This document shows, piece after piece, positions 327 to 25,244 of a stretch of 60,062 nt of DNA. The notes under the pieces are model-generated. The model searched no databases. It was not told where the DNA came from and saw only the letters and a list, made by a program, of their open reading frames with translations. Positions within the stretch are counted from its first letter, which is position 1. Each line of letters opens with the position of its first letter. A program made the translations under genes and the position numbers. Origin of the DNA: a virus (Duplodnaviria; Caudoviricetes); IMG/VR virus record IMGVR_UViG_3300034420_000030, positions 1 through 60,062 of that record; one strand, written 5' to 3'.

Positions 327-760
327 GATGGCGTTCCATTTGTGTCAGGCGAATTTTCCCCGAGCTGCGAAGCCTCATCGCTCGCTGGCGCTCGCTCTTC
401 AAGCTGGCTCAGAGGTGGAGCCGGGGGCGGAAGCCAGTGCGTCGCATTGTGAACTTTCGACCGACAATCATCACCCCCAAATGATGAATCGTCATAGCGC
501 CACCAACGGCCAGACGAAAACCAACATTCAGGCACACGCGCCGGCCCCGCGCTTAATCCAGGCGCTCGACACCATAGATCAACTTTTGTTCCATCCTTCG
601 GCGCGCTTTCGATTGGCCTCCATTCTCTCTCTGAGAGAAGTTGAAGGAGAGCGGCGGAAGATTTTGAAAGAATTACTCGCTGTTCCGGCAACCATTGCTG
701 GGGAGAATGCGCCCAACTATAAAGATCGCGCATCAGCGCCTCTATTTCATCCCTGGTCAT
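323..760 (-). CDS. DUF551-like (Ea22-type) phage protein
   Basis: WRPIESAPKDGT...THWLPPPAPP motif; start moved to MTRDEIEAL. Confidence 0.8.
   Translation of the reverse strand: MTRDEIEALMRDLYSWAHSPQQWLPEQRVILSKSSAALLQLLSEREWRPIESAPKDGTKVDLWCRAPGLSAGPARVPECWFSSGRWWRYDDSSFGGDDCRSKVHNATHWLPPPAPPLSQLEERAPASDEASQLGENSPDTNGTPS
342..407 (-). repeat. Dispersed structured element, full copy
   Basis: CCAGCTTGAAGA-GCGAGCGCCAGCGAGC-GATGAGG-N22-GCCTGACAC. Confidence 0.85.
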
Positions 761-1064
761 TGCTCTTGTCCTTGAGGGCGCGGATGTCTTGGGCGATTTC
801 GCGAGCTTCCGCATTCATGGTTTCAAGACGTCTGAAGTCGTCGGGATAGTTGCGTTGAAAATCTAGGGTGAGGTCCCGAACTCTGTCCTGCGCTACCTTC
901 GCGCACTCCTCTATAGTTTTAAGGCGCACGGCTTGAGCGGCGGCTTCCCATGCGTTCATTTCCTCGACCGCGCAACCTTTCGCTAAGGGCCAATCGACAG
1001 CATGCCCCTTAAACGTGTTGAAGCCTCCATAGGCGATCTCGCCCAGCGTCTTTGTCTCAGCCAT
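747..1064 (-). CDS. Hypothetical phage protein
   Basis: Coupled ORF; EECAKVA...EIAQDIRALK-type C-terminus common in phage accessory genes. Confidence 0.7.
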   Translation of the reverse strand: MAETKTLGEIAYGGFNTFKGHAVDWPLAKGCAVEEMNAWEAAAQAVRLKTIEECAKVAQDRVRDLTLDFQRNYPDDFRRLETMNAEAREIAQDIRALKDKSNDQG

Positions 1065-1323
1065 TGCTCTTGTCCTCAGCGATAGCGCGGATAATAGCAC
1101 GGAAAGCCACATCCATGAATTCATCCGCTCGACAGTTTTCGACGGCAGTCTCAGCAGCGTCTAAGGCCGAAAGCGGCGTCTCGCATTCAGCTAGAGCCAG
1201 AAGCGCGGCGCGCATATATTCGCAGAACTTTTGTTTGTGCCCCTGGCTAACTCGTGTTTCCCAAATCCGCGAGCCGTGCTGCTTTTCCCATGCAGCTTTC
1301 GCCATTGCTTCGATTATCGTCAT
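1057..1323 (-). CDS. Hypothetical phage protein
   Basis: Coupled ORF in leftward operon. Confidence 0.7.
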   Translation of the reverse strand: MTIIEAMAKAAWEKQHGSRIWETRVSQGHKQKFCEYMRAALLALAECETPLSALDAAETAVENCRADEFMDVAFRAIIRAIAEDKSNG

Positions 1324-1748
1324 TAGCCGATATCCATCTTTTCAATGAACGCGCGGGCGTCAGTTAATAGTTGCGGAAGCTCATTTTTGGTTGGCTTGTA
1401 TGCAGGATCGAAGTGGAGGAGAAAGCCAGACATGATCTCCACTGCCTCATTGAGATGGGAGCGGAGGATTTCTGTGTCAGGCAAGCTCCGCAATTGTTGC
1501 GAGGCATCATCGGCGAGTTCTTCACTCGCCTCTTCAAGCTGGCGCTGAGATAGCGGCATTTCTTCGCCATTCTGAGTGCGTTTCATCCCGCAGAAAGTGC
1601 ATTCCCAATACCAATATGCAGTTGCCACAGCACGCTTGACAACCCAGGCATGGTCTCCGGGTTCGCAGACCTTAGCTTGAAGAGGCGTAGCCGATGATGA
1701 GAACGCCCCGGTATCGGCGTCTGCCTGACATTTATCTGTGGTCGTCAT
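1323..1748 (-). CDS. Mosaic hypothetical protein containing two repeat elements and a C/H Zn-finger-like insert
   Basis: ORF reads through elements at 1674-1731 and 1474-1542. Confidence 0.65.
   Translation of the reverse strand: MTTTDKCQADADTGAFSSSATPLQAKVCEPGDHAWVVKRAVATAYWYWECTFCGMKRTQNGEEMPLSQRQLEEASEELADDASQQLRSLPDTEILRSHLNEAVEIMSGFLLHFDPAYKPTKNELPQLLTDARAFIEKMDIG
1474..1542 (-). repeat. Dispersed structured element, full copy
   Basis: CCAGCTTGAAGA-GGCGAGT(GAAGA)ACTCGCC-GATGATG-N22-GCCTGACAC. Confidence 0.9.
1674..1731 (+). repeat. Dispersed structured element, full copy (antisense to local genes)
   Basis: AGCTTGAAGA-GGC(GTA)GCC-GATGATG-N23-GCCTGACAT. Confidence 0.9.
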
Positions 1749-1765
1749 CTTCAATCTCCATTCCA

Positions 1766-1960
1766 TCAGCGATTATCGTATTCTTCTTCATTTGGATAAG
1801 TGAACCATTCCACTGTGGTCACAGTTGCAATCCAGAAGGTCTTGCGACAAAGATTGCAGGTCGTCTTTCTGTCGTCACCATCTTCCCATGGCAGATCACA
1901 TAGATCTGCTTTTGTCTTGTAGTTATCATGTTTACAATGTGGACAAATGACGCCGCTCAT
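1766..1960 (-). CDS. Small zinc-ribbon protein
   Basis: CPHC...CNLC. Confidence 0.75.
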   Translation of the reverse strand: MSGVICPHCKHDNYKTKADLCDLPWEDGDDRKTTCNLCRKTFWIATVTTVEWFTYPNEEEYDNR

Positions 1961-2235
1961 TTATATTTCCTTCCGAAGATATACAGAATTCCTATTCCCC
2001 ATATACATAGCACAAGACCGACGATAATAGGAATAATGAAAGGTTGTAATCCATAAAAAATCTTGTGTGACGCAAGTGTATCAAGTGCAATTCTAACTGG
2101 ACCTGCGACGACGATCTGGTAAACTACAAGCCAGATGACACCTTTTCTGTAGCTCATGCGATCTTCATTGCGGATACGCTTCAAATCGGCGTCCGTATAT
2201 CTGGCGACTAGAAACGATGGTAGCTGATTGCTCAT
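1957..2235 (-). CDS. Small 2-TM membrane protein (AT-rich)
   Basis: Two hydrophobic segments; overlaps both neighbours. Confidence 0.7.
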   Translation of the reverse strand: MSNQLPSFLVARYTDADLKRIRNEDRMSYRKGVIWLVVYQIVVAGPVRIALDTLASHKIFYGLQPFIIPIIVGLVLCIWGIGILYIFGRKYK

Positions 2236-2597
2236 CCGCGTCTCACAACCTTGCCGGACATTTTCTGCTTCATCGGCCCGTCTCTGTTGGTTTGAAAGCC
2301 AGCCGATCTGATCTTGGCTTTTGGCTTTTGGCTTTTCTTCGTCTCGCGGCGGATGGCGCGGCCTTTCTTGGCGGCTTTGGCGTCCATGGTCGTTTTAATC
2401 GTATGGCATAAGCTGCAAAGAGGTCTGCAGTTGGCCAGAGAGTTATCTGACTTGATCTCGCAGCGCATTATGTGGTCATAGACTTCGATCGGTCGCGTAC
2501 AAATCAGCTTGACCTCGATCAGCCCGGCACAAATGCCACCGCGAAGCTCGTAGGCCTTTTTCTTGGTCGCATGGCTGAATTCAAGACGATCGCTCAT
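2232..2597 (-). CDS. HNH endonuclease
   Basis: C...DHI...N..ANCRPLCSLCH..KT motif. Confidence 0.85.
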   Translation of the reverse strand: MSDRLEFSHATKKKAYELRGGICAGLIEVKLICTRPIEVYDHIMRCEIKSDNSLANCRPLCSLCHTIKTTMDAKAAKKGRAIRRETKKSQKPKAKIRSAGFQTNRDGPMKQKMSGKVVRRG

Positions 2598-3619: not shown

Positions 3620-3951
3620 CCGATCCTCGAAGTTTGCCGCAGATTGCTCTGTTCGGTACGCCACGCATCGATGATAGCCATGGCCTTGCCTTTCTGATGT
3701 GAGTGCCAGGCATCCATTCTGACGGCCTCAGCTTCGTCCTGGCAGGCCTTCCAGTAGTCATGGTCAGCTTCAGCCTTGGCCCGGCGAAGATCGACCGTGC
3801 CGCCTTCCTGCTCTATCAGGAGCTCTGCCAGAACTTTTTTGCGGCGATGTTCGGCCAAGATACGATCGCCTCGTGCCTTCGCGGCAGCATCCGCTGCATC
3901 GTTCAGATAGTCGAAAGCGGCCTGAACCATCTTTTCGGTGATCAATGTCAT
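3616..3951 (-). CDS. Helical recombination-associated protein
   Basis: Directly after Bet; AKAEA...Y...IDAWRTEQSN pattern. Confidence 0.6.
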   Translation of the reverse strand: MTLITEKMVQAAFDYLNDAADAAAKARGDRILAEHRRKKVLAELLIEQEGGTVDLRRAKAEADHDYWKACQDEAEAVRMDAWHSHQKGKAMAIIDAWRTEQSNLRQTSRIG

Positions 3952-4940
3952 GCCATTACCTTCAAACTTTCCGGTATGTCTGATGGATCGCTGGCGGCCG
4001 GCGCTTGCGCCTTCTCCAGTTCCTTTTTAAGCTCCAAACAATCGCCCGGATGCGTGCCCCAGAACATTCTGAGCGCAACGCGATTACGTTCCTCGAAGGC
4101 GCGGACGGTGTTCGGCTCGCCATTGCAGCCGAGAAGGAACTCCATCGTTTTGTCGAAGAACTGGCCGGCGGGAACAGAGGCTAGAGGCTTTCCATCCATC
4201 CAATCGACGATGATCATATTCGGGCCGCCGATCTTGGTGATACGGTCGTCCTGTTCGGCGATGTCGGCAATCTCTGAGGCCGTCAGATCGAGTGTGTGGA
4301 GGCGATCAACTTCCTCCTGCACATAGACCCCGGCGAAGTCGTTGGGCCAACCCTTGCGATGCGCTTGCGCTTCGGCGCACTTGGCGATCTGGTTGCGTGG
4401 TCCCTTTGACCATCCCGTTTTCTTTGGATCTATGATGAGCTTGGTGCTCTCGCTGACGATCTTGCGGCGCTTCGGCTTGCCATCCTTGTGGAATTGCCCT
4501 GGAATGTCTTCCCACGTCACGCCATCCTCTACCAAAGGGACGTATTCATCCCAAAATGCTTCGCCGACAACCGGATGCCAGGCGCCGTGCGACCACTTGT
4601 AAAGCGTAACGATGGCGCGGATGATGCCGTGAGGATTTGTCGGCGACTTTAGGTCCGGGTCGGTTTCGTATTGCGTCGGCTGATCTGCTGGCCGGTAATC
4701 GCCAGAGCGAGCCGAGATCGCACGGTAGCCGTCGATGGCGGTGACAACCGTTAGATTGCGGGCTTCATCGTCCTTGCCCTTGCCGAACACGAACGCATAA
4801 ATTTGGCGGCGCAAGGGATCAAGGCCGACCGCTTTGGCGATGTGAATGAATTGGTCGAACTCGTGCGGAAGGCAATCCTTCGCTACGGTCTTGCGAATTA
4901 GCGCCAAATCGGATTTGTTGAAAACAGCGATTTCGTTCAT
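3948..4940 (-). CDS. bet: Red-beta/RecT-family ssDNA annealing recombinase
   Basis: GLDPLRRQIY, IDGYRAIS..SG.Y, AKCAEAQAHRKGWP motifs. Confidence 0.9.
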   Translation of the reverse strand: MNEIAVFNKSDLALIRKTVAKDCLPHEFDQFIHIAKAVGLDPLRRQIYAFVFGKGKDDEARNLTVVTAIDGYRAISARSGDYRPADQPTQYETDPDLKSPTNPHGIIRAIVTLYKWSHGAWHPVVGEAFWDEYVPLVEDGVTWEDIPGQFHKDGKPKRRKIVSESTKLIIDPKKTGWSKGPRNQIAKCAEAQAHRKGWPNDFAGVYVQEEVDRLHTLDLTASEIADIAEQDDRITKIGGPNMIIVDWMDGKPLASVPAGQFFDKTMEFLLGCNGEPNTVRAFEERNRVALRMFWGTHPGDCLELKKELEKAQAPAASDPSDIPESLKVMA

Positions 4941-4942
4941 GG

Positions 4943-5452
4943 TCAGTCCCAACGTAGGGTGAGAGAAAATCCAGGATTATTCAGACATGCGCCGGGGACC
5001 GTCTCACGATCCTTCAGCGCAGCCAGGAGAGCCCGCTTGTTCAGGCGCGGCGCAGATGCCTCCCAGAACTTCGACGGCACTGCAGCCTCATCTGTGACCC
5101 GTACAGCGGGGGGCGATGGGCGTAGCGACAGCGTAACGGCGGGGTGCTCGACATTCTTCCGGCCGGCCTGCTCCATCGCAGTCGCGAGAGCAGTGCGGTA
5201 ATGCCCGATGCGGCCCTCGATGCGATCCTTGCGGGCGACGAGCAAATCGATCATCTCATTGAGGCCATTCATGGCGGCGAGATCATCGATGAGCATCCTA
5301 ACGGCGGCGTCGATTGCCTCGTTGAGGTCGGTTTCCGCCTCGATCATATCCGCAGCGCATTGCTCATCATTTCCGATGATGTCAGCCAGATTGGCGCGAA
5401 GCGCTTTTGCCGCCTCCGTCTCACGGTGAAGCTGGTGACTGACTTCGCTCAT
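4943..5452 (-). CDS. Siphovirus Gp157-family protein
   Basis: LSLRPSPPAVRVTDEAAVP..F...P.LNK..L..ALK....VPGA.L motif. Confidence 0.85.
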   Translation of the reverse strand: MSEVSHQLHRETEAAKALRANLADIIGNDEQCAADMIEAETDLNEAIDAAVRMLIDDLAAMNGLNEMIDLLVARKDRIEGRIGHYRTALATAMEQAGRKNVEHPAVTLSLRPSPPAVRVTDEAAVPSKFWEASAPRLNKRALLAALKDRETVPGACLNNPGFSLTLRWD

Positions 5453-5652
5453 GGCATCATATCCCGGACCCAATCAAGCGACGGGTCATCATTCCAGCTT
5501 GCCTCGATGAATAGATCGGCCATGCTTGGCTCAGCGTCATTTTGAGGCTTGACAGCTTTCGCGGCTTTCGTGCCGTGCTTGGCCTTGGTGTGCTGCCAGC
5601 GGGCGTTATCGTCGGAGAACGTTCTTTCGCAGTGCTCGCATTTGACGCTCAT
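5449..5652 (-). CDS. C2H2 zinc-finger protein
   Basis: CEHCERTF......QH...KH. Confidence 0.8.
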   Translation of the reverse strand: MSVKCEHCERTFSDDNARWQHTKAKHGTKAAKAVKPQNDAEPSMADLFIEASWNDDPSLDWVRDMMP

Positions 5653-7346: not shown

Positions 7347-7487
7347 TCACTCTCCGCCGCTTCCCCCGCATGGTCCGCCGCCATTATGCCAGATCTCGCA
7401 GTTTGAAGACCGTCCGCCTCCACATGCTGCCAGACCAACGCAGACAGTGAGCAACGCCACCGTCAAAAATCCGCCAATAAGTTTCAT
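7347..7487 (-). CDS. 46-aa lipoprotein (not in ORF track)
   Basis: MKLIGGFLTVALLTVCVGLAA-CGGGRSSNCEIWHNGGGPCGGSGGE; LAAC lipobox. Confidence 0.7.
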   Translation of the reverse strand: MKLIGGFLTVALLTVCVGLAACGGGRSSNCEIWHNGGGPCGGSGGE

Positions 7488-7506
7488 TGATATTCCCTCT
7501 AGTAAG

Positions 7507-7755
7507 TTAGTTTCCGTATCCGTCTCCGTTTCCGTATCCGTTTCCGTATCCGTCTCCGTCTCCGTATCCGTCTCCGTATCCGTCTCCGTTTCCGTCTCCG
7601 TATCCGTATCCGTATCCGTCTCCGTCTCCGTATCCGTCTCCGTCTCCGTTTCCGTATCCGTATCCGTATCCGTCTCCGTCTCCGTCTCCGTATCCGTATC
7701 CGTCTCCGTATCCGTATCCGTCTCCGTCTCCGTCCAGCGTTATTATTTGATCCAT
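7507..7755 (-). CDS. Gly-(Asp/Tyr/Asn) dipeptide-repeat protein
   Basis: Tandem GGA-NAC hexamers; start overlaps upstream gene. Confidence 0.7.
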   Translation of the reverse strand: MDQIITLDGDGDGYGYGDGYGYGDGDGDGYGYGYGNGDGDGYGDGDGYGYGYGDGNGDGYGDGYGDGDGYGNGYGNGDGYGN

Positions 7756-8012
7756 GCTTCTTCCTTACAAGGAATGATGTTAATCATGGCTCTCCGGTTC
7801 AGTTTGACCAATGCCGGATCGTCGAGTTGTGTGTTTGGCAATGGACCTTCATTCGCCAATTGGTTGAGGCCGCGTTGCGTGCCCCAACGGCGTACAATGC
7901 GCGCCCCGGCAATAATGACGAGGTCATCGACTGTTACGGTCTCGCCTACCCAGACATGGCCGCGATCGGCGATGACCAGGCACAAGCCGTGATTTTGATT
8001 TTTGTCCGACAT
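7743..8012 (-). CDS. Conserved phage protein usually paired with GDGYG-repeat ORFs (DUF6948-like)
   Basis: VIADRGHVWVG...ARIVRRWGT..GL.QLA.EGP. Confidence 0.75.
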   Translation of the reverse strand: MSDKNQNHGLCLVIADRGHVWVGETVTVDDLVIIAGARIVRRWGTQRGLNQLANEGPLPNTQLDDPALVKLNRRAMINIIPCKEEAWIK

Positions 8013-9062: not shown

Positions 9063-9069
9063 CAGCAGA

Positions 9070-10420: not shown

Positions 10421-10530
10421 CGCGAAAACGTGGCCGTCCCTATGTCGGTATGACCGGTCAGCGCTTTGGCCGTTGGCTGGTAGTGTCAAAAGCTGCAAGC
10501 GCCAATTACAGAACAGCAGCAGGAGCCTGA
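10417..10530 (+). pseudogene. Truncated HNH N-terminal fragment ending in GCCTGACAC
   Basis: MTRKRGRPYVGMTGQRFGRWLVVSK...; stop is the TGA of GCCTGACAC (10525-10533). Confidence 0.6.
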
Positions 10531-10536
10531 CACAAA

Positions 10537-10773
10537 ATGCGACCAGAAGAACTTGCAAAGAAATGCGTAGACGCAATAAATTTCTGGAAAGACAATCCAG
10601 ACCAAGCCATCATTACGATTGTCCTGCAGAAAGGCTGGAAGGCGCCTCCGAAATTCCCACGCCGAACCCTGCTTTGTGAGAATTCAAAAACCGAGCGTGT
10701 CTATAGCGTGTCGGCCATGAATGTTCTTGCGTGGTTGGCGGCGAACGGCTTTGTGAAAGTAGCCAAAAAATGA
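10537..10773 (+). CDS. Hypothetical protein
   Basis: Starts right after GCCTGACAC; AGGAG upstream. Confidence 0.6.
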   Translation: MRPEELAKKCVDAINFWKDNPDQAIITIVLQKGWKAPPKFPRRTLLCENSKTERVYSVSAMNVLAWLAANGFVKVAKK

Positions 10774-13097: not shown

Positions 13098-13325
13098 ATG
13101 AGTAAACCGGATATTCTTGATGCCCTTGACGATCTGCATATCCAGGCGACGAGGGAAAAATCACATCACTATGTCGGCAGCGTATGTCAAATGGCAGCGG
13201 CGGAAATCATCAACCTTCGCGCCGATAATGCAAAAATGAGGTTTGATCTTAGAAACCTTAAACGCCAGCTTGAAGAGCCGCATAGCGGCGATAATGAGGT
13301 AACTCCGAAGACAGAGGCGGCCTGA
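13098..13325 (+). CDS. Hypothetical protein whose C-terminus and stop derive from a repeat element
   Basis: GGAGG RBS; ends RQLEEPHSGDNEVTPKTEAA. Confidence 0.7.
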   Translation: MSKPDILDALDDLHIQATREKSHHYVGSVCQMAAAEIINLRADNAKMRFDLRNLKRQLEEPHSGDNEVTPKTEAA

Positions 13326-13328
13326 CAC
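13265..13328 (+). repeat. Dispersed structured element, full copy
   Basis: CCAGCTTGAAGA-GCCGC(ATA)GCGGC-GATAATG-N23-GCCTGACAC. Confidence 0.9.
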
Positions 13329-13421
13329 ATGTCACGATTTACGACAAACCAATGGATCTTACTTGGCGTCATCGGCGCTGTAGCGCTGGCGCTTCTGCTG
13401 ATCAATATGAAGGTGCTCTGA
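13329..13421 (+). CDS. 30-aa single-TM peptide (not in ORF track)
   Basis: MSRFTTNQWILLGVIGAVALALLLINMKVL; TGATG-coupled to next gene. Confidence 0.55.
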   Translation: MSRFTTNQWILLGVIGAVALALLLINMKVL

Positions 13422-13868: not shown

Positions 13869-15485
13869 ATGCGATTTTTCAACCTGCTATGGGCGCTACC
13901 GGCGACGCTGGCTATTGGCGCCATCTGGTGTGTGTCGGCATACGCCAATTATTCGTTTGGCCTGTCTCTCGGCAGTGACCTGTTTGGCTATGCTTCGCTG
14001 GCCGTCGATGTGGCCAAGGCCGTCATTCTGTTTGGCGCTTTCGCGGCCATCGCGCACCGGCATTATCTGGCGTCTGCGACGCTGATGGCCATATGGGTGT
14101 GCTGCTCACTCTGGGGCATTGCCAGCGCCATCGGCTTTGTCTCAACGCATTACGCCACCATGACCGACAATCGTGGCAAGACTGCGGAAGAATGGACGCA
14201 GCTTGAAAGCCAGATCGCCAGTTTGAAGGAGCGCCGCAAATCTGTGTCGGCGGCCCGGCCAGAAGGCGTCGTGCAATCCGAGATCGATGGCTTGATGCGC
14301 GAAGTCGAGAGCTGCGCCGTGATCAATGGTCCGGTGACGCGCTCGCTTTGCCCGAAAGTCGATAGGCTGAAAGCCGAGCTGGCAAACGCCAAATCAGCCT
14401 CTTGGCTTGACGGCAGGCTTGACGAGCTGCGTAAGGAGATGAAGATAACCGCGCATGTGTCCTCCGTCGATCCGCGCGCTGATGCCCTGGCCGGTATTCT
14501 CGGCTTGGCGTCGCCGATGCTGGCTAAAGGCCTGGCTGGATTCTTCGCCCTGATGATGGAGTTGATCACCGCGACTGGCCTATGGGCCGTCTGGAAGGCG
14601 TTTGGGGCCACTATACAGGCTAAGCGGGCCAGTGGGCCGGAGGCTTTAGATTTTACGGCGTCCGCGGCCGCCGAATTCGCGGCCAGCGTTGGAAATAAAG
14701 AGCGGCCGGTAAAGTTTCGCGGCCGCTCGGCCGGGGAAATAGAAATTCCGGTTGTGACGCGCCCGGACGTGACCACGGGACCAAACGAAAAGCTTACGGC
14801 TATGTACGGGCGCTATCGTGCGGTCGAAGACGCAAAAGCCAACGCGAAGCTTGAGCGTCTTGGCGAAGATGTGCGAGCAGCCGTTGCGGCGCTGAGTAAG
14901 CCAGCGTCAGATCCAACTGTCAAACCGGATTTGACAGTTGCGCCATCCGATAAACCATTTTCGCGGGATCACGAAAATGGTGTTTTAAAACCACCATTTT
15001 ACGCACCTCCGGAAAATGGTCCTGACCCCGATGGCGGCAAATCCGCGCCAGTGCCGCAAGAGCCAACGGAAGCCAAACCGGAAAACGTTGTCACGCTTGA
15101 CGGAGAACCCTATACGCCAACGCGGGCCGAGCGGCGCAAGGGAAAGAAAGCTCGTAAAGCCAAGGCGCATCGTTTGGCGAAGTCGGTACAGGATTGGATC
15201 GAGATGGCGACAGCTCCATCGCAAGACGTCGGCAGCGTGCGTTTGGCGTCAAAGACCCAGTGCTATCCGCACTATCTTAAATTCATGAAAGCCATAGGCC
15301 AAGAACACATTCCGCCACGGCACTTTACGACAGAGCTTAAGGATATCTTCGGCATCGACGAGCGCCAGCATACTGGCGGCAAGGGCGGCACATGGATCTA
15401 TGATCTAATCCTGCTTCCACAAGAGAAATGGGCGCTTCCCGCCAAGGCCGGCCGGTGGCCGGAGAAAAGACGAGCGGTCGCATGA
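13869..15485 (+). CDS. Multi-TM, coiled-coil protein with Pro-rich linker and possible C-terminal DNA-binding domain
   Basis: 3-4 N-terminal TMs, coiled coil with Cys pair, further TM, low-complexity linker. Confidence 0.8.
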   Translation: MRFFNLLWALPATLAIGAIWCVSAYANYSFGLSLGSDLFGYASLAVDVAKAVILFGAFAAIAHRHYLASATLMAIWVCCSLWGIASAIGFVSTHYATMTDNRGKTAEEWTQLESQIASLKERRKSVSAARPEGVVQSEIDGLMREVESCAVINGPVTRSLCPKVDRLKAELANAKSASWLDGRLDELRKEMKITAHVSSVDPRADALAGILGLASPMLAKGLAGFFALMMELITATGLWAVWKAFGATIQAKRASGPEALDFTASAAAEFAASVGNKERPVKFRGRSAGEIEIPVVTRPDVTTGPNEKLTAMYGRYRAVEDAKANAKLERLGEDVRAAVAALSKPASDPTVKPDLTVAPSDKPFSRDHENGVLKPPFYAPPENGPDPDGGKSAPVPQEPTEAKPENVVTLDGEPYTPTRAERRKGKKARKAKAHRLAKSVQDWIEMATAPSQDVGSVRLASKTQCYPHYLKFMKAIGQEHIPPRHFTTELKDIFGIDERQHTGGKGGTWIYDLILLPQEKWALPAKAGRWPEKRRAVA

Positions 15486-15634
15486 CCCCCGCCGAGATCC
15501 AAGAACGGATAGATGACATCAAGCAGCAAGTCTATGATGGTCTGTTGCGTCCACCGGAAGGCCGTCGCAAGATCGTCGAGCTAAAGTGGATATTGCGGAG
15601 CTTGCTTGAAGAGCAGCGAAGCCGCGATGAGTGA
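15482..15634 (+). CDS. Small hypothetical protein ending in an element half-site
   Basis: MTPAEIQERI...LLEEQRSRDE. Confidence 0.55.
   Translation: MTPAEIQERIDDIKQQVYDGLLRPPEGRRKIVELKWILRSLLEEQRSRDE
15604..15630 (+). repeat. Dispersed element, 5' half only
   Basis: GCTTGAAGA-GCAGC(GAA)GCCGC-GATGA; supplies the ATG of the next gene. Confidence 0.75.
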
Positions 15635-15827
15635 TCCGGTTGAAATTCGAGATCTCACGCATGCTATGGAGATCATGACCAAGCTTGATGAGAAAATCAT
15701 TGAGCTTCGTAATGAGCTTAAGGTGTTTACGAAGTTTCGGCGTGATATTCAGTTTACAATTCGTCAAATGCGTCGAATTGAAGAGCGAAGCGATGATGAG
15801 GCGGCTCCGAAGTCTGGGTCTGCCTGA
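15627..15827 (+). CDS. Small coiled-coil protein bracketed by elements
   Basis: MSDPVEIRDL...IEERSDDEAAPKSGSA. Confidence 0.65.
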   Translation: MSDPVEIRDLTHAMEIMTKLDEKIIELRNELKVFTKFRRDIQFTIRQMRRIEERSDDEAAPKSGSA

Positions 15828-15830
15828 CAC
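15778..15830 (+). repeat. Dispersed structured element, full copy
   Basis: TTGAAGA-GC(GAA)GC-GATGATG-N23-GCCTGACAC. Confidence 0.9.
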
Positions 15831-15847
15831 ACAAAAAGGAAAATCAC

Positions 15848-16117
15848 ATGACCGAAGTCCATCCAAACCATGTTCATCCGCGCAGCAAGCGTACGTCGAA
15901 GGCGGAGCCATATCGAGCGTTATTCAAGCCATTGGTGCCAGTTAAGGCCGGAAAAAGCCAGCGCCGCAAAGCCGAAACCTATCGTGGCGCACGTCGCAAG
16001 GCAGAGCGAGGACCTCGCAAAAGCCTCCAGCTCTTGGCTATACGGACAGTTTTGGGAATTTCCCGTCAAGAACATGATCGCCGACGTGAAGAGGCGCGGA
16101 AATTGCTTTTGGCCTGA
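15848..16117 (+). CDS. Very basic small protein; stop lies within GCCTGACAC (16112-16120)
   Basis: AAAGGA RBS; R/K-rich. Confidence 0.65.
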   Translation: MTEVHPNHVHPRSKRTSKAEPYRALFKPLVPVKAGKSQRRKAETYRGARRKAERGPRKSLQLLAIRTVLGISRQEHDRRREEARKLLLA

Positions 16118-16174
16118 CACAAAAATAGACGGCCGGTGTTCGTTGCTATGTTCCCGGCCGCCTAATGATCAGAA

Positions 16175-16752: not shown

Positions 16753-16800
16753 GTGATCAGAAACGCCAAACTGAGATATTAGAAACAGGAGACCATTCCC

Positions 16801-18374: not shown

Positions 18375-18545
18375 TGGCGACAGGAAAGCACTTGAAGCCC
18401 CCGAGGGGGCTGTGCTATCGTCGTGTCGGAGTTTTGCGTTTGAAGCGGCTCAACCATGCCTGCCAGGGTGAAGGTTGAAGCCTGATCCGAGCGCCGAAAT
18501 TATCGTTTCGGTGAACGCCCTTCTTACGTCCGGAGCCTGCCGAAC

Positions 18546-18728
18546 ATGACCAATTATAATGCCTCACCCGCAGCAACGCAACAAGAAAATTTAATATCCT
18601 TGTTGGAGGAAACGTTTCATTGGATTCAGCGGGCTGTAAGTTCTCTTGAGCCAATATCAGATCGGGATGCTTGCGAAGGGCTTGCCCTCATGGTTCGCCT
18701 TAAGGAGGCACATCATGCTCGGGCATAA
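18546..18728 (+). CDS. Hypothetical protein
   Basis: GGAG upstream; overlaps initiator start. Confidence 0.5.
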   Translation: MTNYNASPAATQQENLISLLEETFHWIQRAVSSLEPISDRDACEGLALMVRLKEAHHARA

Positions 18729-19746: not shown

Positions 19747-20219
19747 TCCTTCCCGATGTCGATCTTGAGCTATCTCGGCGAGGCATCAAGGTTGATCCGA
19801 ACAAGGCCAATCAGTACGTTAACTGTCCGACTTGCCTGGCGAATAGCCACAATAAGAAGGGCAAGAAAAAGATAAGCGTTACGGTCAAGGACGGCATGGT
19901 TTTCTGGCGCTGCTTTCGATGCGCCGAGCGGGGCGGACTGAAAAATGCTGACAAGCCAATTGAGTACAAAACACCGAGACGAAATCACAGCCAGGGGGCT
20001 GGATCTGGCCCTGTGCCAGCGCTACGGCGTGAGGAGCAGCGGCGAAGCGATAGCCTTCGATTATCTGGTAAACGGGAAGATCCACAACACCAAGAACCGT
20101 CTCGGCAAAGGCAATATGCCCTGGGCCAAAACGGGTGTGCCGCTCGTACTCTGGAATGTGGACGCCCTGAGAGGCGATCCGCAGGAACGCGAACTGATCA
20201 TAACCGAAGGCGAATTTGA
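19737..20219 (+). CDS. Primase zinc-binding domain (first ~70 aa), out of frame with the primase core
   Basis: CPTC...H..K....ISV......WRCFRC..RGG. Confidence 0.75.
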   Translation: MGLILPDVDLELSRRGIKVDPNKANQYVNCPTCLANSHNKKGKKKISVTVKDGMVFWRCFRCAERGGLKNADKPIEYKTPRRNHSQGAGSGPVPALRREEQRRSDSLRLSGKREDPQHQEPSRQRQYALGQNGCAARTLECGRPERRSAGTRTDHNRRRI

Positions 20220-21420
20220 CGCGCTCGCCTGTATTCAGGCCGGATTTCTAGATGCTGTGAGCGTTCCGAATGGAGCACCTACCAGCGCGCAGGAAGATGG
20301 CGAAGCACGGTTCAAATATCTGTTCAAAGGCGAAAAACTCCATCCAGATATCGACAAATTCAACCGCATCATTCTGGCCGTCGATGGCGATGAGAAAGGA
20401 TTGTTTCTGCGCGATGCGTTGGCCGTTAGGCTCGGCGAAGCCCGTTGTCTATGGATCGATTGGCCAGATGGCTGCAAGGACGCAAACGATGTTTTGCGCC
20501 ATCATGGCCCGGAGCATCTAGCCGAAGTTCTGATGAACCCGCGTCGTATGTTCATCGACGAGGTATGCACGCTAGACGACATCCCAGATCCGCCGGAAGA
20601 GCGCGCCTATCATCTCGGCTTCGTCGGGCTGGAAAACCATTTGAAGTTCCCAAAAAAGGGTTTCGTGACCATTCTTGGCCCCTACGGCTCAGGCAAATCA
20701 ACGCTGGTCCGGCAGATCGCCTACAACATGCAGTCCATCCACGGCTGGAAAACCGGGATTACCTGTTTCGAGGAAAGTGCCAAATGGCGCACGGTCAATG
20801 CCTTCCGCAAGATGATCATTGGCAAGCCTCGCGCCTATTGGGCTGGATCAGAAGTCGAGATGGCCGATAACTGGATCAGACGCAACATTGTATTTTTCCA
20901 GAAGAAAAAGCGCGAACTGATGACCGGTGCTCGCTATTTAGATCGGATTGAATATGCCGTGAAGGTCTACGGCTTAAACATGGTAATAACCGATCCGATG
21001 AATGAGCTTGATCATCAATGGCCGAATGGAAAAAGCAAAACCGACTATATGGCGGATCTGATCATGGCTATGAAGGATCTCGCCGATAGCTACTCGTTTT
21101 TGAAGGTCTGCTGCACGCATCCGCCGTCAATGTCGATGCGAGTGCAGAATAACAAGAAGAAGAAAATATTCACGCTCGCCGACAATGCAGACACGGCTCA
21201 CTTCGGCAATAAAAGCGACATCGGTCTTGCTGTCTGGCAAGGAAACGGCAGTGGGTACACGCTTGTAAACATTGACAAAATCAAGAATAGGGAGCTTTAT
21301 GGAGAACCAACAGGTGTTGAATTGAAATTTTTGAAAGAGCAAGAGAAATATATTGTTTCCCGCACAGGATGGGATGTGCTTTTCGATAATGAAGAGGCAA
21401 TCGATAATGAAGATCGGTAA
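19945..21420 (+). CDS. Twinkle/T7 gp4-like TOPRIM primase-SF4 helicase
   Basis: IITEGEFDALA, SVPNGA, LAVDGDEKG, CKDANDVL, Walker A GPYGSGKS, ITDP.N. Confidence 0.92.
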   Translation: MLTSQLSTKHRDEITARGLDLALCQRYGVRSSGEAIAFDYLVNGKIHNTKNRLGKGNMPWAKTGVPLVLWNVDALRGDPQERELIITEGEFDALACIQAGFLDAVSVPNGAPTSAQEDGEARFKYLFKGEKLHPDIDKFNRIILAVDGDEKGLFLRDALAVRLGEARCLWIDWPDGCKDANDVLRHHGPEHLAEVLMNPRRMFIDEVCTLDDIPDPPEERAYHLGFVGLENHLKFPKKGFVTILGPYGSGKSTLVRQIAYNMQSIHGWKTGITCFEESAKWRTVNAFRKMIIGKPRAYWAGSEVEMADNWIRRNIVFFQKKKRELMTGARYLDRIEYAVKVYGLNMVITDPMNELDHQWPNGKSKTDYMADLIMAMKDLADSYSFLKVCCTHPPSMSMRVQNNKKKKIFTLADNADTAHFGNKSDIGLAVWQGNGSGYTLVNIDKIKNRELYGEPTGVELKFLKEQEKYIVSRTGWDVLFDNEEAIDNEDR

Positions 21421-21766
21421 TGTGAAAATTCTCTATCGTAACCATCAATGGATGGTGCAAGAGGAGCCAAGGGGAAAATTTATTGTTGAGGTGAATGAAC
21501 GAAATCCAGACGATACCGGAAGTGGGTACTGGATGCATATGCAAGATCTCATGCATTTACGCGGCAATGGAACACACAGCATGATCCAGCATGTCTGTGA
21601 AAAGACATGGGTCGATATCGACGCTTTCGAGCAAGCGGTTCTTTATGCTTTTCTGGCTTTCGACATGAAACCGGATTACGACGTGTCCGAGCAATTCGCG
21701 ATATCTCGTCGGCAGAAAAACGAAGAATTCAGCTATCCATGGACGGCTCTCAATGACTATGCATAG
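21407..21766 (+). CDS. Hypothetical protein
   Basis: HVCEKTWVDIDAF motif; coupled ORF. Confidence 0.65.
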   Translation: MKIGNVKILYRNHQWMVQEEPRGKFIVEVNERNPDDTGSGYWMHMQDLMHLRGNGTHSMIQHVCEKTWVDIDAFEQAVLYAFLAFDMKPDYDVSEQFAISRRQKNEEFSYPWTALNDYA

Positions 21767-22268
21767 CTTTCAATCCATCGGCTCGCTAGCGGAGCGCATT
21801 ATGTCCACACAGCCTCGATCCGTCATCAGCCAAGTGCATAAGGATTTGCGCATTCCCGACGGCTATTACCGCACGCCGGTCAGCACCAACAGTCAATGGC
21901 TTCCTCCCATGGAAATCAAGACGCCGCCGATCACGGAAGAGCAGCGCCATGTTGCGGCGGCTAAACTGGTCGCCGCCAAAGTCATCTCCGCGTCATCGGT
22001 CGATGCGGTGCTGGCGCGGCTGTGTGAGCGCTTGGAAAAGCTCCCCGGCTATTTGAATGCGGACGGTACCCGACCAATAGTGCCTAAAGACGATTGTCCG
22101 CCCATTCCTCGCGATAAATTCAAGTCGCCAAGAACCATCCGCATGAAGGCAATCCTTTTGGAAAATCCCGGTTTGACGATTGGAAAATACTGCGAATTAG
22201 GAGACTGTTCAAAGACGATTGTCTATGCTGCGAAGCAGGCATTGCGCCAAGAGGGGAAGCTGCCGTGA
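21753..22268 (+). CDS. Hypothetical protein with C-terminal HTH
   Basis: ILLENPGLT......LGDCSKTIVY.AK..L. Confidence 0.65.
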   Translation: MTMHSFQSIGSLAERIMSTQPRSVISQVHKDLRIPDGYYRTPVSTNSQWLPPMEIKTPPITEEQRHVAAAKLVAAKVISASSVDAVLARLCERLEKLPGYLNADGTRPIVPKDDCPPIPRDKFKSPRTIRMKAILLENPGLTIGKYCELGDCSKTIVYAAKQALRQEGKLP

Positions 22269-22492
22269 GCCGCCGTAAGCCTTATACGCAGATCGGCATT
22301 CGGAGGCTCTCTTGCGAGCGATGTGGACAGCCGGGGCGCACTCAATGGCAGATCTGCGCCGACGACCGAGTGTACAGGATTTTATGCGCCGGTTGTGATG
22401 TGGAATTGAACGAGCTTGTCGTCCGATGGGTATGGGGCAGGCGGCGTGAGAGAGACCTTAAACGCTATCGTCAGAAAATGGAAGCCGCATGA
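22265..22492 (+). CDS. Zinc-finger protein
   Basis: CERC...QWQICAD...LCAGC. Confidence 0.7.
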   Translation: MSRRKPYTQIGIRRLSCERCGQPGRTQWQICADDRVYRILCAGCDVELNELVVRWVWGRRRERDLKRYRQKMEAA

Positions 22493-22710
22493 GCGCCTAT
22501 CCCTGCCACAAGTGCCGCCACTGGCACGGCTCGCCAATCCCGCCCATGCAATGGGGACAATGTCGGCGGCGGTCGCCAGTCCTGATGCTCTGCACAGGAG
22601 CGACGGAATGGCCTCAAGTGCATCGAAATGACCATTGCGGTGAATTCGAGCCGCGTTCAATGAGCCAGGCGCTGGCAATAGCGGATGCAGGAGATCATGA
22701 TGGACTTTGA
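22489..22710 (+). CDS. Cys-rich (HiPIP-like motif) small protein
   Basis: CHKCRHW...GQCRRRSP...WPQV...DHCGEF. Confidence 0.7.
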   Translation: MSAYPCHKCRHWHGSPIPPMQWGQCRRRSPVLMLCTGATEWPQVHRNDHCGEFEPRSMSQALAIADAGDHDGL

Positions 22711-23203
22711 AGCAAAAGCACGCGAGATCGCGCACCGATATCTGACGATGCCAAACGAAAACCATCATTGCGATGAGCCTATTACGCCATATGGCCATAT
22801 CTTTGTCTGCAATGCCCTTACTGCCGCAATCGCCGCTGCTCTTTCCCTAGCAGCAAAAGAGGAAAGAGAAGCTTGCGCTAAGATCGTCGATAATTTTTCA
22901 GCGAACCGCCAAATGCTCACCGGCGTCATCGTTGCCGTCATCCGCGCAAGAGGCCCCAGCGCAAGCGGAGAGGACTCATCGCCTTCGGCTCTTCAATCTA
23001 GTTCAGAGCTTGAAGCTGAAAAAGCTCATTCAGAACGCCTAGGATTGGCCCTGTCGATGATTGCCTTAGGCTGTGAGCACCCAAAAGTTGTTGCGATGAA
23101 GGCATTGAAATGGTCGGAAATCTCGGAGAGCCAGATTGAAGAGCAATGTGCGGAAAACGCACATTGCGATGATGCGACCGCTCCACAAACAAAGCCAGCC
23201 TGA
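22697..23203 (+). CDS. Mosaic hypothetical protein reading through two inverted elements
   Basis: EREACAKIVD...IRARG domain, then element-derived sequence and passenger. Confidence 0.65.
   Translation: MMDFEAKAREIAHRYLTMPNENHHCDEPITPYGHIFVCNALTAAIAAALSLAAKEEREACAKIVDNFSANRQMLTGVIVAVIRARGPSASGEDSSPSALQSSSELEAEKAHSERLGLALSMIALGCEHPKVVAMKALKWSEISESQIEEQCAENAHCDDATAPQTKPA
22951..23001 (-). repeat. Dispersed element (antisense), outer GACAC end lost
   Basis: CTAGATTGAAGA-GCC(GAA)GGC-GATGAGT...GCCT. Confidence 0.75.
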
Positions 23204-23206
23204 CAC
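23131..23206 (+). repeat. Dispersed structured element, full copy
   Basis: CCAGATTGAAGA-GCAATGTGCG(GAAAA)CGCACATTGC-GATGATG-N23-GCCTGACAC. Confidence 0.9.
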
Positions 23207-23218
23207 CAAGGAAACCCC

Positions 23219-23623
23219 ATGAAACTGACCAATATCACGCCTGAGCAATATCGCTGTCCATATGCGGATTGCCCTGCGATCTACACGGCTTGCGGCATCG
23301 CCCAGTGCCCAACGGTCATTGCCATAGGCGACACGTATGCTATCATCGGCAGACGTGTTGCATGTGGTCCAAACGACTATAGCGCGTCCGATTACCTCGA
23401 AATCGTCAATCGTATCGGCGATGACGAGACTGCTGTTACAATCCCTGCTGTCATCGTCAACGAAGCCGTTAATGCGGAGTTGTGCCGGCGCATAGCTGAG
23501 CTTGAGGCAGCGCTGGTGGCAATGATGAACGAACATGGCGCTTTGGATGGAAACCCAGATACTGACAGCCCCGCAGAACGAATGGCTCGCGCCGCCCTAT
23601 CACCTGATAAGGCTACACCATGA
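23219..23623 (+). CDS. Hypothetical Cys-motif protein
   Basis: AAGGA RBS; duplicated C...CP.(I/V) motif. Confidence 0.65.
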   Translation: MKLTNITPEQYRCPYADCPAIYTACGIAQCPTVIAIGDTYAIIGRRVACGPNDYSASDYLEIVNRIGDDETAVTIPAVIVNEAVNAELCRRIAELEAALVAMMNEHGALDGNPDTDSPAERMARAALSPDKATP

Positions 23624-23838
23624 GCAACTACATTCGCGTAGCGTGGCATCCGGTCGAGCGCGTCGCTCGCGCGGATGCCTTTCTTGACAATCACTTCGGC
23701 CATTACGAATATGGCGTTGCTTTTAACGGCGATCCGAATGTCTATCGGCCCGAAGAAGTCGAAATACCGATCGATCTGGTTCTGGCGCCGATTATGCAGA
23801 TCCTTTTGCCCTGTTCGCCTGAGAAGGCTACATCATGA
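23620..23838 (+). CDS. Hypothetical protein
   Basis: LDNHFGHYEYGV.F motif; bracketed by boundary repeats. Confidence 0.65.
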   Translation: MSNYIRVAWHPVERVARADAFLDNHFGHYEYGVAFNGDPNVYRPEEVEIPIDLVLAPIMQILLPCSPEKATS

Positions 23839-24056
23839 CCGACTATCGCTGCAAGAAATGCGATACGATTGTTCCTCGTGGCCACCGCATGCAATACTGC
23901 CAGTGTGGCAAGATATGGGCAGATTGGGGTGCGGACGGCAAAGGTTCGACCGTTCGCGTCGGATGGCCAGATGGCGATCCCCAAGATTGGATTGAGGTGA
24001 TTGGCGCAGAAGCCTCAGAGAAGCCCGTAGGGCCGCCTTTGCATGATGAGGCGTAA
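23835..24056 (+). CDS. Zinc-ribbon protein
   Basis: CKKC...YCQCG. Confidence 0.65.
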   Translation: MTDYRCKKCDTIVPRGHRMQYCQCGKIWADWGADGKGSTVRVGWPDGDPQDWIEVIGAEASEKPVGPPLHDEA

Positions 24057-24110
24057 AAGATAGCTCATAAGTCAGCTTCGGCCGTCAGCGCCGCTAAATA
24101 GGTTATAGTC

Positions 24111-24485
24111 ATGCTAAAAAAAGTGCGAGAACATCATGGGTTATCATCCGAGAAAGAATTTAACCGATGGAAAGCCATGATTAGTCGTTGTCATAATCAG
24201 CAGAATTCCAATTATTTTTATTACGGAGCACGCGGTATTTTCGTATGTGAACGGTGGAGATATGGTGATGGCACAAAAAATGGATTGGAATGTTTTAGGG
24301 ATGATATGGGAGAATGTCCCGATAAACATACCTTGGATCGCCGAAATAACAATGGCCCCTATTCTCCTGAAAATTGCCGATGGGCTACCAGAAAGCAGCA
24401 GACGAATAATAGAAGACCGATAATAACTAACAGAATTAAATTTAGGAATTTGAAAATGTTGTGTCAAAAAAGTATATCAAGATGA
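24111..24485 (+). CDS. HNH endonuclease catalytic half (AT-rich)
   Basis: WKAMISRC...YGARGI.VCERW...F.DMG..P...[24 protein letters not shown]. Confidence 0.88.
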
Positions 24486-24510
24486 TCTAACGCAGCATTT
24501 AGGGGGATGA

Positions 24511-24741
24511 ATGAATAAAGCCGGAGAACGCTTATTTAAAACACAGGCGGCTGCACTTATGGACGCGCTTGAGGAAATGATTTTCGAAGGCGGCGGAACG
24601 GTTGTAGTTTGCGTCGGTGAAGAATGCCCGTTTCGAGGTGATGACGCTGTAGCCAATCAGGAATCTGGTTGCCCAATCTGTAGGCGCATTGAAGTCTCTG
24701 CCGATGGCTCGACACGTGAATTCCGAAGGCTTGCGAACTGA
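24511..24741 (+). CDS. Small Cys-containing protein
   Basis: ORF in operon. Confidence 0.55.
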   Translation: MNKAGERLFKTQAAALMDALEEMIFEGGGTVVVCVGEECPFRGDDAVANQESGCPICRRIEVSADGSTREFRRLAN

Positions 24742-24966
24742 ATGACCAAACCAGAAACCTCTGTTCTCGTCCTGCAGAAACAGCTTGACGCCGCCAACAA
24801 AGAGATTGCCACCTTGCGCACAGTGGTTGATCATACCGTTGCGATTGTTGCCGGCGCGGGCGGCCGTGTCGAAGTTCCTGTTGCGAAATACGAAGAGTAT
24901 TCTCAGCGTCGCTGGCGTCACGAGAATGATGGTATCACCCATATTTTTACCACGGAAGCCGAATGA
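24742..24966 (+). CDS. Hypothetical protein
   Basis: Abutting ORF. Confidence 0.6.
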   Translation: MTKPETSVLVLQKQLDAANKEIATLRTVVDHTVAIVAGAGGRVEVPVAKYEEYSQRRWRHENDGITHIFTTEAE

Positions 24967-25241
24967 GCACCGATCAAGAGCTTTCGTTGGTGGATTGCCG
25001 CAATCGCGGTCTAGGCGATCTAGCTACGGTTATTGAGGCAATCTGGGGGCCGCGCTGCAACATCCATGACGGACATTGCTTCGTGTGCAATGCATGGCTT
25101 ATGTTTGACACATTGAGCCGGCTTACCGATACGAGCACGCTGGATTTTTATGATGAGAACCCCGAAAAGCTCAAAGCCAGATTGAAGAGCAAGTCAAAGA
25201 CTTGCGATGATGAGACGGCGTGGAAACAGGAATTGGCCTGA
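24963..25241 (+). CDS. Hypothetical protein ending in a repeat element
   Basis: WGPRC.....C.VC.AW motif. Confidence 0.65.
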   Translation: MSTDQELSLVDCRNRGLGDLATVIEAIWGPRCNIHDGHCFVCNAWLMFDTLSRLTDTSTLDFYDENPEKLKARLKSKSKTCDDETAWKQELA

Positions 25242-25244
25242 CAC
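25177..25244 (+). repeat. Dispersed structured element, full copy
   Basis: CCAGATTGAAGA-GCAAGTC(AAA)GACTTGC-GATGATG-N23-GCCTGACAC. Confidence 0.9.

Follow-up and report, generated by a model that had tools for sequence, protein, structure and literature searches.

The 60,062-base IMG/VR virus record IMGVR_UViG_3300034420_000030 (Duplodnaviria; Caudoviricetes), which we analysed whole and call the window, is a phage sequence that carries a dispersed repeat. This element consists of box 1 (TTGAAGAG), a hairpin, box 2 (GATGATG), a spacer of 22 or 23 nt and box 3 (GCCTGACAC), and the window has seven full and four partial copies. It is a real, well-delimited repeat family with a covarying hairpin, found at module boundaries of a rare phage clade. 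Its anatomy, the selection on its structure, its independence of reading frame and transcript strand, and its coincidence with module swaps and inserts are matters of observation. We give a probability of roughly 45% to the reading that the element is a strand-specific site of 55-85 nt, acting at the DNA level, that bounds exchangeable gene and domain cassettes, with crossover, as we infer, on folded single-stranded DNA (ssDNA). The element is apparently undescribed, on the basis of searches of Rfam and sequence collections; the literature was searched for analogues only.

Anatomy and copies of the element

A regular expression for the three boxes (box 1, N5 to N32, box 2, N20 to N25, box 3) returned exactly the seven full copies (Table 1), at the places where a model that had seen the letters alone (the sequence-only reading) had put them. 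The four partial copies were also found. Exact box 3 occurs eight times against 0.35 expected, in agreement with the earlier count of at least eight against about 0.5, and none of 100 shuffles reached eight. The string CCAGMTTGAAGA, with at most one mismatch, occurs six times (0.55 expected). A covariance model was trained on four copies, one from the window and three from the relative L077. It recovered all eight untrained full copies at E<=0.0012 (six in the window, one in L077 and one in a second relative, L164), and three of the four partial window copies (15604, 16087-16120 and 10525) at E 0.014-0.043. The fourth, at 22951-23001, was found by a scan for box 1, hairpin and box 2. All 11 window copies sit in the early region. 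The structural region had been said to contain none, and the covariance model found no credible copy there; the best match was a 27-nt fragment at 35870-35896 (E 0.047).

The TGA of box 3 is the stop codon of five open reading frames (ORFs) of 73-172 aa (Table 1). Six such copies had been counted earlier, but the sixth, at 10525, closes an ORF of merely 26 codons, with the next gene beginning 6 nt further on. This ORF (10453-10530, MTGQRFGRWLVVSKAASANYRTAAGA and a stop) may be the remnant of a longer gene cut off at the element. The next ATG lies 3-20 nt downstream of box 3. At copy 15604, the upstream ORF 15428..15634 stops in box 2, and box 2 supplies an ATG (15627) that shares the frame of the following ORF. 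The consecutive junctions 15604, 15778 and 16087 flank genes of 66-89 aa. At copies 342 and 1474 the ORF continues through box 3 as P-D-T; the 22-nt spacer of copy 342 lets the DUF551-like ORF 323..814 read through box 3 (ending in QLEERAPASDEASQLGENSPDTNGTPS and a stop). The spacer is 22-23 nt in the window, as claimed, but 24 nt in two L077 copies.

Nine copies are in sense orientation, at or near the 3' ends of ORFs, while four are antisense within ORFs. Three inverted pairs have box 3 pointing outward (1468-1737, 22930-23212 and L077 7569-7882) and enclose in-frame cargos of 40-70 aa. In the first pair, copy 1669..1737 lies antisense within ORF 1323..1766, right behind the start codon (translated ..KCQADADTGAFSSSATPLQ..), and copy 1468..1545, the right arm, is sense within the same ORF. 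Copy 22930..23009 is the left arm of the second pair and lies antisense within ORF 22685..23203; an identical hairpin occurs at L077 7569-7637(-). Partial copy 16087 looks like a copy whose hairpin was lost between the GAAGAG and GATGAG repeats. Copy 25177 has 18 nt of its 5' part in common with copy 23131, and its 3' part is 81% identical to copy 16087.

Table 1. Copies of the element and other annotated features of the window
Feature	Position	Strand	Details	E
Full copy 342	342-407 (span 336..410)	-	imperfect hairpin; box 2 GATGAGG; spacer 22 nt	0.0012
Full copy 1474	1474-1542 (span 1468..1545)	-	GGCGAGT-GAAGA-ACTCGCC; spacer 22 nt	2.6e-07
Cargo	1543..1668	-	between inverted pair 1669-1737(+) and 1468-1545(-); Cys/His-rich body, ~40 aa	
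Full copy 1674	1674-1731 (span 1669..1737)	+	GGC-GTA-GCC; box 3 GCCTGACAT	1.1e-08
Partial copy 10525	10525 (span 10499..10539)	+	box 3 only	0.04
Full copy 13265	13265-13328 (span 13262..13334)	+	GCCGC-ATA-GCGGC; box 2 GATAATG; TGA ends ORF 13098..13325	
Partial copy 15604	15604 (span 15598..15666)	+	box 1, hairpin GC-A-GC-GAA-GC-C-GC (one A.C mismatch), box 2 GATGAGT	0.014
Full copy 15778	15778-15830 (span 15770..15836)	+	mini-hairpin GC-GAA-GC; TGA ends ORF 15606..15827	1.9e-09
Partial copy 16087	16087-16120 (span 16078..16126)	+	box 1-like GTGAAGAG fused to spacer and box 3; no hairpin or box 2; TGA ends ORF 15848..16117	0.043
Partial copy 22951	22951-23001 (span 22930..23009)	-	box 1, GCC-GAA-GGC, GATGAGT; no box 3	
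Full copy 23131	23131-23206 (span 23128..23212)	+	10-bp hairpin, GAAAA loop; TGA ends ORF 22685..23203	7.4e-10
Full copy 25177	25177-25244 (span 25174..25250)	+	7-bp hairpin, AAA loop (GCAAGTC-AAA-GACTTGC); TGA ends ORF 24963..25241; next ATG 5 nt on	1.9e-09
RecT-like annealing protein	3951-4952	-		
Mu Gam-like protein	4946-5473	-		
Cro-like helix-turn-helix protein	8856-9059		early region	
GcrA cell-cycle regulator homologue	9337-9954			8e-40
Replication initiator	18646-19743		internal iterons at 19078-19239	
Toprim primase/helicase	19945-21417			
Major head protein	38714-39892			
LuxR/GerE-type regulator	58397-58924	-		3e-14

Covariation of the hairpin and its DNA-like character

In a 12-copy alignment, whose fitting to the structure model favours the pairing score, all 49 stem cells of the five outer pairs were paired, 18 of them with changes on both sides. 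None of 500 shuffles reached the observed pairing or covariation score, and controls with slid partners paired in 24-51% of cells. RNAalifold returned this helix alone, and the stems were reproduced by a simple palindrome test working from the outside in; no second conserved helix was found. These results support structural selection on the hairpin. The earlier claim that it always pairs was nearly true: the stem of copy 342 (GC/GA/GC-GCCA-GC/GA/GC) has four Watson-Crick pairs and two G.A mismatches.

The 13 hairpins have 11 distinct stem sequences and contain about 63 Watson-Crick pairs and no G-T pair (manual count). Ten of their loops run from G to A on the element strand, antisense copies included (GAA four times, GCA twice, and GTA, GAAAA, GAAGA and GCCA once each). 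For the shortest stem, GCGAAGC, nearest-neighbour models predict no folding, whether as DNA or as RNA. GCGAAGC is the classic mini-hairpin of DNA and has a Tm of 76.5 C, compared with 39 C for the close RNA analogue r(GCGAAAGC) (PMC13037366). Stems of 2 bp and 3 bp are marginal as RNA. The antisense copies reach full covariance-model scores (43 bits) and are conserved in proteins of other phages. DNA is therefore favoured over RNA by the lack of G-T pairs, the G..A loops on the element strand, the stability of GCGAAGC as DNA and the intact antisense copies. Box 1 (TTGAAGA) and box 2 (GATGATG) directly abut the stem, and from their sequences they could extend it by A.G, G.A, A-T, A.G and G.A pairs. 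No trans-acting site complementary to box 2 was found.

The element might instead act on the transcript as a cis-regulatory gene-junction element, through factor binding or 3'-end protection, with box 3 coupling the stop to re-initiation. The breakpoints described below would then lie there only because a conserved functional sequence supplies homology. The prevalence of sense copies (9/13) fits this explanation, as does the change of orientation, which occurs where transcription diverges, near 8 kb, and not at the iteron origin (19078-19239) and so tracks transcription. The stop codons in box 3 with a start codon close behind, the in-frame ATG at copy 15604, and the confinement to the early region also fit, and a direct role in expression would more easily explain purifying selection on every copy. 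Moreover, the placement resembles that of the SAS and ESAS repeats of mycobacteriophages discussed below (PMC3203893; PMC12699233). However, the antisense copies in ORFs keep their boxes and hairpins and are conserved across phages, no G-U appears among the pairs, the G..A loops track the element strand and not the mRNA strand, and the shortest stems would be marginal in RNA. In addition, the boxes do not resemble Shine-Dalgarno sequences and are about 45 nt away from the following start codon, and no copy carries a sigma-70-like promoter or terminator-like site. We regard a role in the transcript as doubtful, although it is the strongest of the rival explanations. Of the two functions proposed by the sequence-only reading, recombination site or cis-acting RNA, the former agrees with the structure and with the module breakpoints, and the latter is weakened.

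Conservation at the nucleic-acid level

In most copies box 1 translates as Q-L/I-E-E, but it gives R-L-K in copy 25177, where it stands in another frame (ARLKS..), and in the L077 copy at 10652. Box 3 yields A-stop, P-D-T or S-L-T, and the four antisense copies translate as ..KCQAD..SSS..PLQ... The element-bearing ORFs are not similar to each other. Several reading frames and both orientations occur among the boxes, so conservation is at the nucleic-acid level; this bears out the earlier claim, which the unrelated flanking genes also support.

The same data bear on the idea of a conserved C-terminal peptide tag (..QLEE-x-DDE..A) kept by protein-level selection in several small proteins. The hairpin insert is a multiple of three in five of the seven full window copies, with the ORF reading Q-L/I-E-E .. 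D-D/E, and three copies read ..AP-K/Q-T/S..A before the stop, which fits such a tag. However, two window copies and at least three copies of the relatives are in other frames, and antisense copies exist. The third codon positions of the boxes are invariant, three nucleotides past the stop are conserved, and a perfect 10-bp palindrome has no protein-level explanation. A peptide tag is thus largely refuted by the frame and orientation data, and we consider it extremely improbable.

A search of Rfam, proposed earlier as a check, found no family that matches the element. Over the whole window there was no match at the gathering score, and at E<=5 the region 1-27000 gave a tRNA and two sub-threshold chance matches, none on the element strand. 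A match to SNORD48 at 1696-1752(-) (E 0.11) was below threshold and was rejected. C/D-box or K-turn, hammerhead and lambda nut boxB motifs were rejected because their spacing or key bases misfit and Rfam gave no match. Sigma-32, sigma-54 and Caulobacter promoters, a three-frame stop cassette and a 16S-complementary tether also misfit in spacing or key bases. None of the 16 sigma-70-like sites in 8000-27000 overlaps a copy, and terminator-like sites likewise coincide with none. The distance between box 1 and box 2 varies with stem length.

Module swaps at the elements

Six DUF551 homologues of ORF 323..814 end a few residues past the domain and have no element tail, whereas the window protein continues into an element-coded tail. 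In protein alignments, P0013 and P0014 match ORF 323..814 in the N-terminus and the element tail and differ from it in the middle part. ORF 1323..1766 runs first through an antisense copy, then through a Cys/His body of 40 aa and a sense copy, and finally through a C-terminal domain. Both element peptides and the C-terminal domain are shared by P0018, but its body (68 aa) is unrelated. P0017 keeps the body of the window protein and has a 42-aa insert immediately behind the P-D-T of box 3. In P0002, a DUF551 body is followed by a module of antisense element, cargo and sense element, and this module aligns with that of P0018, which is a different gene. The hairpin-coded peptide A-G-T of P0017 is the same as that of a non-orthologous copy, L077 7809. 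A variant contig of sequencing run X3 leaves the window at 17738, 10 nt past its own box 3. The window copies lie in segments that are not common to L077 or to the relative G005.

On 7500-27000, the contigs of four DNA runs contained one joint, an 80-nt skip at 23595-23676, which is off the elements; no excision or inversion joints were seen in these contigs, in which rare forms drop out. Two other pairs of junction repeats occur in the window, at 2589-2627/2837-2875 (family D5) and 23600-23630/23815-23845 (family D15). They consist of a stop, a Shine-Dalgarno-like stretch and a start, and each pair flanks one small gene of 72-83 aa. Repeated junctions are thus a general trait of this phage.

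Rickettsia palindromic elements (RPEs) insert in frame within ORFs, and many DDE transposon ends begin with TG and end with CA. The element could be a non-autonomous mobile element, such as a miniature inverted-repeat transposable element (MITE) or an RPE. Its ends would be the outward box 3 sequences (5'-TGTCAGGC..GCCTGACA-3'), its transposase would be encoded elsewhere, perhaps in the host, and solo copies would be single ends or decayed partners. The three inverted pairs around short cargos, the presence of one module type in two different genes (P0002 and P0018), the in-frame copies in both orientations within ORFs and the outer ends, which start with TG and finish with CA, all agree with this. 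However, no target-site duplication is evident at 1468-1737, the only window pair with both ends intact (flanks ..TTTCTG and TTATCTG..). Every copy has a hairpin and spacer of its own, whereas the copies of an active MITE family are near-identical, and most copies are solo, sense and at gene ends. Furthermore, no transposase was found in the phage, and the 48 box-pattern matches in the genomes of 185,579 bacterial and archaeal species have no hairpin. A mobile element is therefore quite unlikely in our view.

Distribution among relatives

Only two contigs beyond the window hold the element. L077 (12.6 kb, primase 75% identical) has four copies, with stems GGCGC-TTT-GCGCC, GGACC-GCA-GGTCC, GGCCG-GCA-CGGCC and GCC-GAA-GGC. 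L164 (5 kb, primase 80% identical) has one, with stem GCAC-GAA-GTGC. The four-copy covariance model, a check that had been suggested with the sequence-only reading, recovered the eight other full copies and gave no match in 99 further related loci totalling 1.40 Mb. It also found no copy in G005, a 57-kb relative with a common structural module (TerL 74%) and a distant early region. Since copies occur with the related early region and none in G005, the element accompanies the early module in a clade that is very small.

Pattern scans of IMG/VR gave, besides L077, only chance matches: 68 stretches with box 2, spacer and box 3, four with three boxes, and 76 with box 1 and box 2. Chance matches of this kind act as a natural control, and none of 75 matches to box 1 and box 2 had a hairpin filling the gap. 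Among bacterial and archaeal genomes, one per species, none of the 48 box-pattern matches had a hairpin filling the gap. With the primase as query, one relative was found in IMG/VR and two in metagenomes, one of which is the same contig, while RecT as query gave no relatives. TerL gave 80 loci, among them G005, which has no copy; the phrog_2428 gene gave 80 loci, with no copy outside L077; and P0013 gave two distant loci. Only three contigs and a few database proteins represent the family so far. No close relative was found among GenBank phages by megablast and tblastn.

Genome context and the search for an enzyme

The first 127 bases of the window are identical to the last (59936-60062), giving a terminal repeat of 127 bp. 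Assemblers commonly use a k-mer of this length, so the record may represent a circular assembly and not a genome that truly has direct terminal repeats. The genes are directed leftward between about 8 kb and position 1, and rightward beyond 8 kb. In a PHROGs scan, terminase, portal and major head protein lie from 33.9 kb onward. The GcrA homologue indicates an alphaproteobacterial host. At least three iteron-like repeats (CCG(T/C)TTCCTGAAAAACCG; repeat family D4) lie within the replication initiator gene, and they are a likely replication origin, as in lambda O.

A Pfam scan of 77 non-structural (early-region) ORFs found no domain of an integrase, transposase, reverse transcriptase (RT), HUH nuclease or RNA polymerase, and 27 further proteins scanned with Pfam or PHROGs had no recombinase, integrase, transposase or RT domain. 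This agrees with the earlier statement that no integrase, transposase or RT is recognisable. The only nuclease hint was an HNH match below cut-off at 2235-2597(-). The largest ORF has 762 aa, and no RNA polymerase family was found with PHROGs in the ten largest ORFs of 26.8-56 kb, which are the structural-region ORFs scanned.

These results also bear on a further explanation, in which the element is a signal in ssDNA, either a primase entry site, such as ssi of G4 and RSF1010, or a hairpin promoter of the type found among the early promoters of phage N4. Precisely such sites have mini-hairpins with G-N-A loops as their known hallmark (PMC13037366), the phage encodes a Toprim primase/helicase, and the distance from the hairpin to the CTG in box 3 is fixed at 22-24 nt. 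However, there is no copy in the 33-kb structural half, which also needs replication, and the orientation does not flip at the iteron origin. The size of the largest ORF and the early-region scan, which showed no RNA polymerase domain, speak against a hairpin promoter, and the stop-codon and frame relations and the module swaps would be left unexplained. Such a signal is very unlikely.

Several other features of the window were noted. A 663-aa ORF at 26771-28762 has no family match, but its residues 296-383 are 47-57% identical to proteins annotated in several phages as major head or coat proteins, despite the separate major head protein. At 7468-7782 there is a tandem array with 6/12/18-nt periodicity and 16 overlapping copies, within ORF 7447..7992(+) or 7507..7755(-), and contigs of other samples stop or diverge at it. 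The region 17107-18645, about 1.5 kb directly upstream of the replication genes, has several hairpins and no convincing ORF. Two variant contigs of run X3 break at its edge or within it (17106 and 17738). A tRNA-like gene at 26265-26357 scored 40 bits in Rfam, above the gathering score, and was not called by ARAGORN. It has 38 nt in place of the 17 of the model and thus may hold an insertion or intron. Contigs of three runs match only 26221-26266 in this region and diverge on both sides, and the adjoining ORF 26642-27631(-) has no integrase domain. Two unknown proteins of 538 and 383 aa had no sequence match in PDB; the 538-aa protein gave only weak D5-like hints in an atlas search.

A possible mechanism

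If the element bounds exchangeable cassettes, one strand would fold to the hairpin, in which the sequence and length of the stem would be free and the base would be clamped by the purine-rich box 1 (..TTGAAGA) and box 2 (GATGATG..). Box 3, at a fixed 22-24 nt further on, would carry the stop of the upstream gene, 3-20 nt before the next start codon. Cassettes would be joined, swapped or inserted at the elements, with solo sense copies closing small genes and inverted pairs, box 3 outward, flanking in-frame cargos. The crossover would take place on folded ssDNA, and two routes are conceivable. In one, an unrecognised enzyme of the phage or host would act on the folded element. In the other, the hairpin would stall replication, and the RecT-like protein would anneal the conserved flanks from two copies anew, through template switching or recombination at short homology. 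A fixed spacer of 23 nt keeps GAT GAT in frame with GCC TGA, so an exchange in box 1, hairpin or box 2 should still end the upstream gene properly. A more specific version of the enzymatic route, an undescribed attC-like gene and domain cassette system on folded ssDNA that accepts either orientation, makes in-frame fusions and uses a different, unrecognised enzyme (a phage protein or a host factor), is rather unlikely.

Several points weigh against the reading as a boundary of exchangeable cassettes. The earlier prediction was that synteny breakpoints between related phages fall at the elements. Protein alignments place swaps and an insert at element edges, but the DNA ends of the blocks shared by the window and L077 are one gene off the nearest element (23620 vs 23206, and 25426 vs 25244), and the breakpoint evidence consists of about six proteins aligned at the protein level. 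The scanned proteins yielded no domain of a recombinase, transposase, HUH nuclease or RT. The conserved boxes are merely 7-15 nt, which is short for homologous recombination. Sense orientation prevails (9 vs 4), and a role in gene expression would account equally well for the built-in stop and restart. Finally, the unrelated junction repeats D5 and D15 coexist with the element, so conserved junctions may result from shuffling and not cause it.

Comparison with known systems

Phage genomes are mosaics, and exchange sites are rarely visible in them. The clearest precedents for visible module-exchange sequences are the promoter-early stem-loop (PeSL) cassettes of T4-type phages and the attC sites of integrons. 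The element described here is compact and clearly delimited: its hairpin covaries, and its flanks and spacer length are fixed. It lies where relatives differ by genes or in-frame segments. If crossover does occur at the element, it would be a tractable model for the shuffling of accessory genes and domains in phages with no recognisable recombinase, and it might uncover a new enzyme or a hairpin-driven template-switch mechanism.

attC sites lie at the 3' ends of small ORFs, mark cassette boundaries, fold strand-specifically as ssDNA and have core sites RYYYAAC and GTTRRRY. Like them, the element is found at the 3' ends of small, mostly unknown ORFs has short boxes around a free palindromic centre at cassette boundaries, and fits strand-specific folding as ssDNA. 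However, the scanned proteins include no IntI-type tyrosine recombinase (Phage_integrase), and there is no attI site or Pc promoter. The attC cores are complementary, whereas box 1 and box 2 are not Watson-Crick complementary and allow only G.A, A.G and A-T pairs. The element also has a third box at a fixed distance and is translated. attC sites have one orientation, with one site at the 3' end of each promoterless cassette; of the copies of the element, nine are sense, at or near ORF 3' ends, and four are antisense within ORFs.

PeSL cassettes of T4-like phages combine a conserved motif with a variable stem-loop at the borders of variable ORFs, and modular shuffling through homologous or site-specific recombination has been proposed for them (PMC4122927; PMC2839356). 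The element likewise has a short conserved motif and a variable stem-loop and borders small variable ORFs in hyperplastic regions. The PeSL as described there is an intergenic terminator plus a sigma-70 promoter (TTGACA-N17-TATAAT), whereas the element overlaps none of the 16 promoter-like sites, lies in coding sequence, supplies a stop codon and forms inverted pairs around in-frame cargos, and its phage is not T4-like.

Other dispersed or single-stranded signals are more distant. Short G-C stems with G-N-A loops that are exceptionally stable as DNA and act in single strands are also found in G4 oric, RSF1010 ssiA and the N4 early promoters (PMC13037366). These signals number one to three per replicon, at origins or early promoters, and work with a known primase or virion RNA polymerase, whereas the element has about 11 dispersed copies at gene ends and no polymerase of that kind is recognisable. 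REP/RAYT, RIME and MITE/RPE sequences are dispersed short palindromic repeats too, but no HUH/RAYT gene was found in our scan, the stems of the element are not conserved (11 distinct among 13), and the element is absent from the bacterial genomes scanned and has no Rfam match.

[quoted passage not shown] These are located 3-7 bp before start codons in the non-structural half, mostly in one orientation, and their function is described as unknown (PMC3203893; PMC12699233). They are also clade-specific asymmetric repeats upstream of starts that sometimes hold the upstream stop, and SAS is often paired with an upstream inverted repeat, comparable to the element (PMC3203893; PMC12699233). The distance of SAS from the start codon is similar to the 3-20 nt between box 3 and the next ATG (PMC3203893). 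On the other hand, SAS has the 13-bp consensus GGGATAGGAGCCC with a Shine-Dalgarno core, while box 3 differs from it and has no AGGAG core (PMC3203893). The 17-bp arms of ESAS are conserved around a variable spacer, and its authors saw no support for an RNA hairpin; in the element, the arms covary and the flanks are conserved (PMC3203893). Thus, although it lacks the defining features of each of these systems, the element appears to work most like PeSL cassettes and attC sites, with a placement like that of SAS and ESAS.

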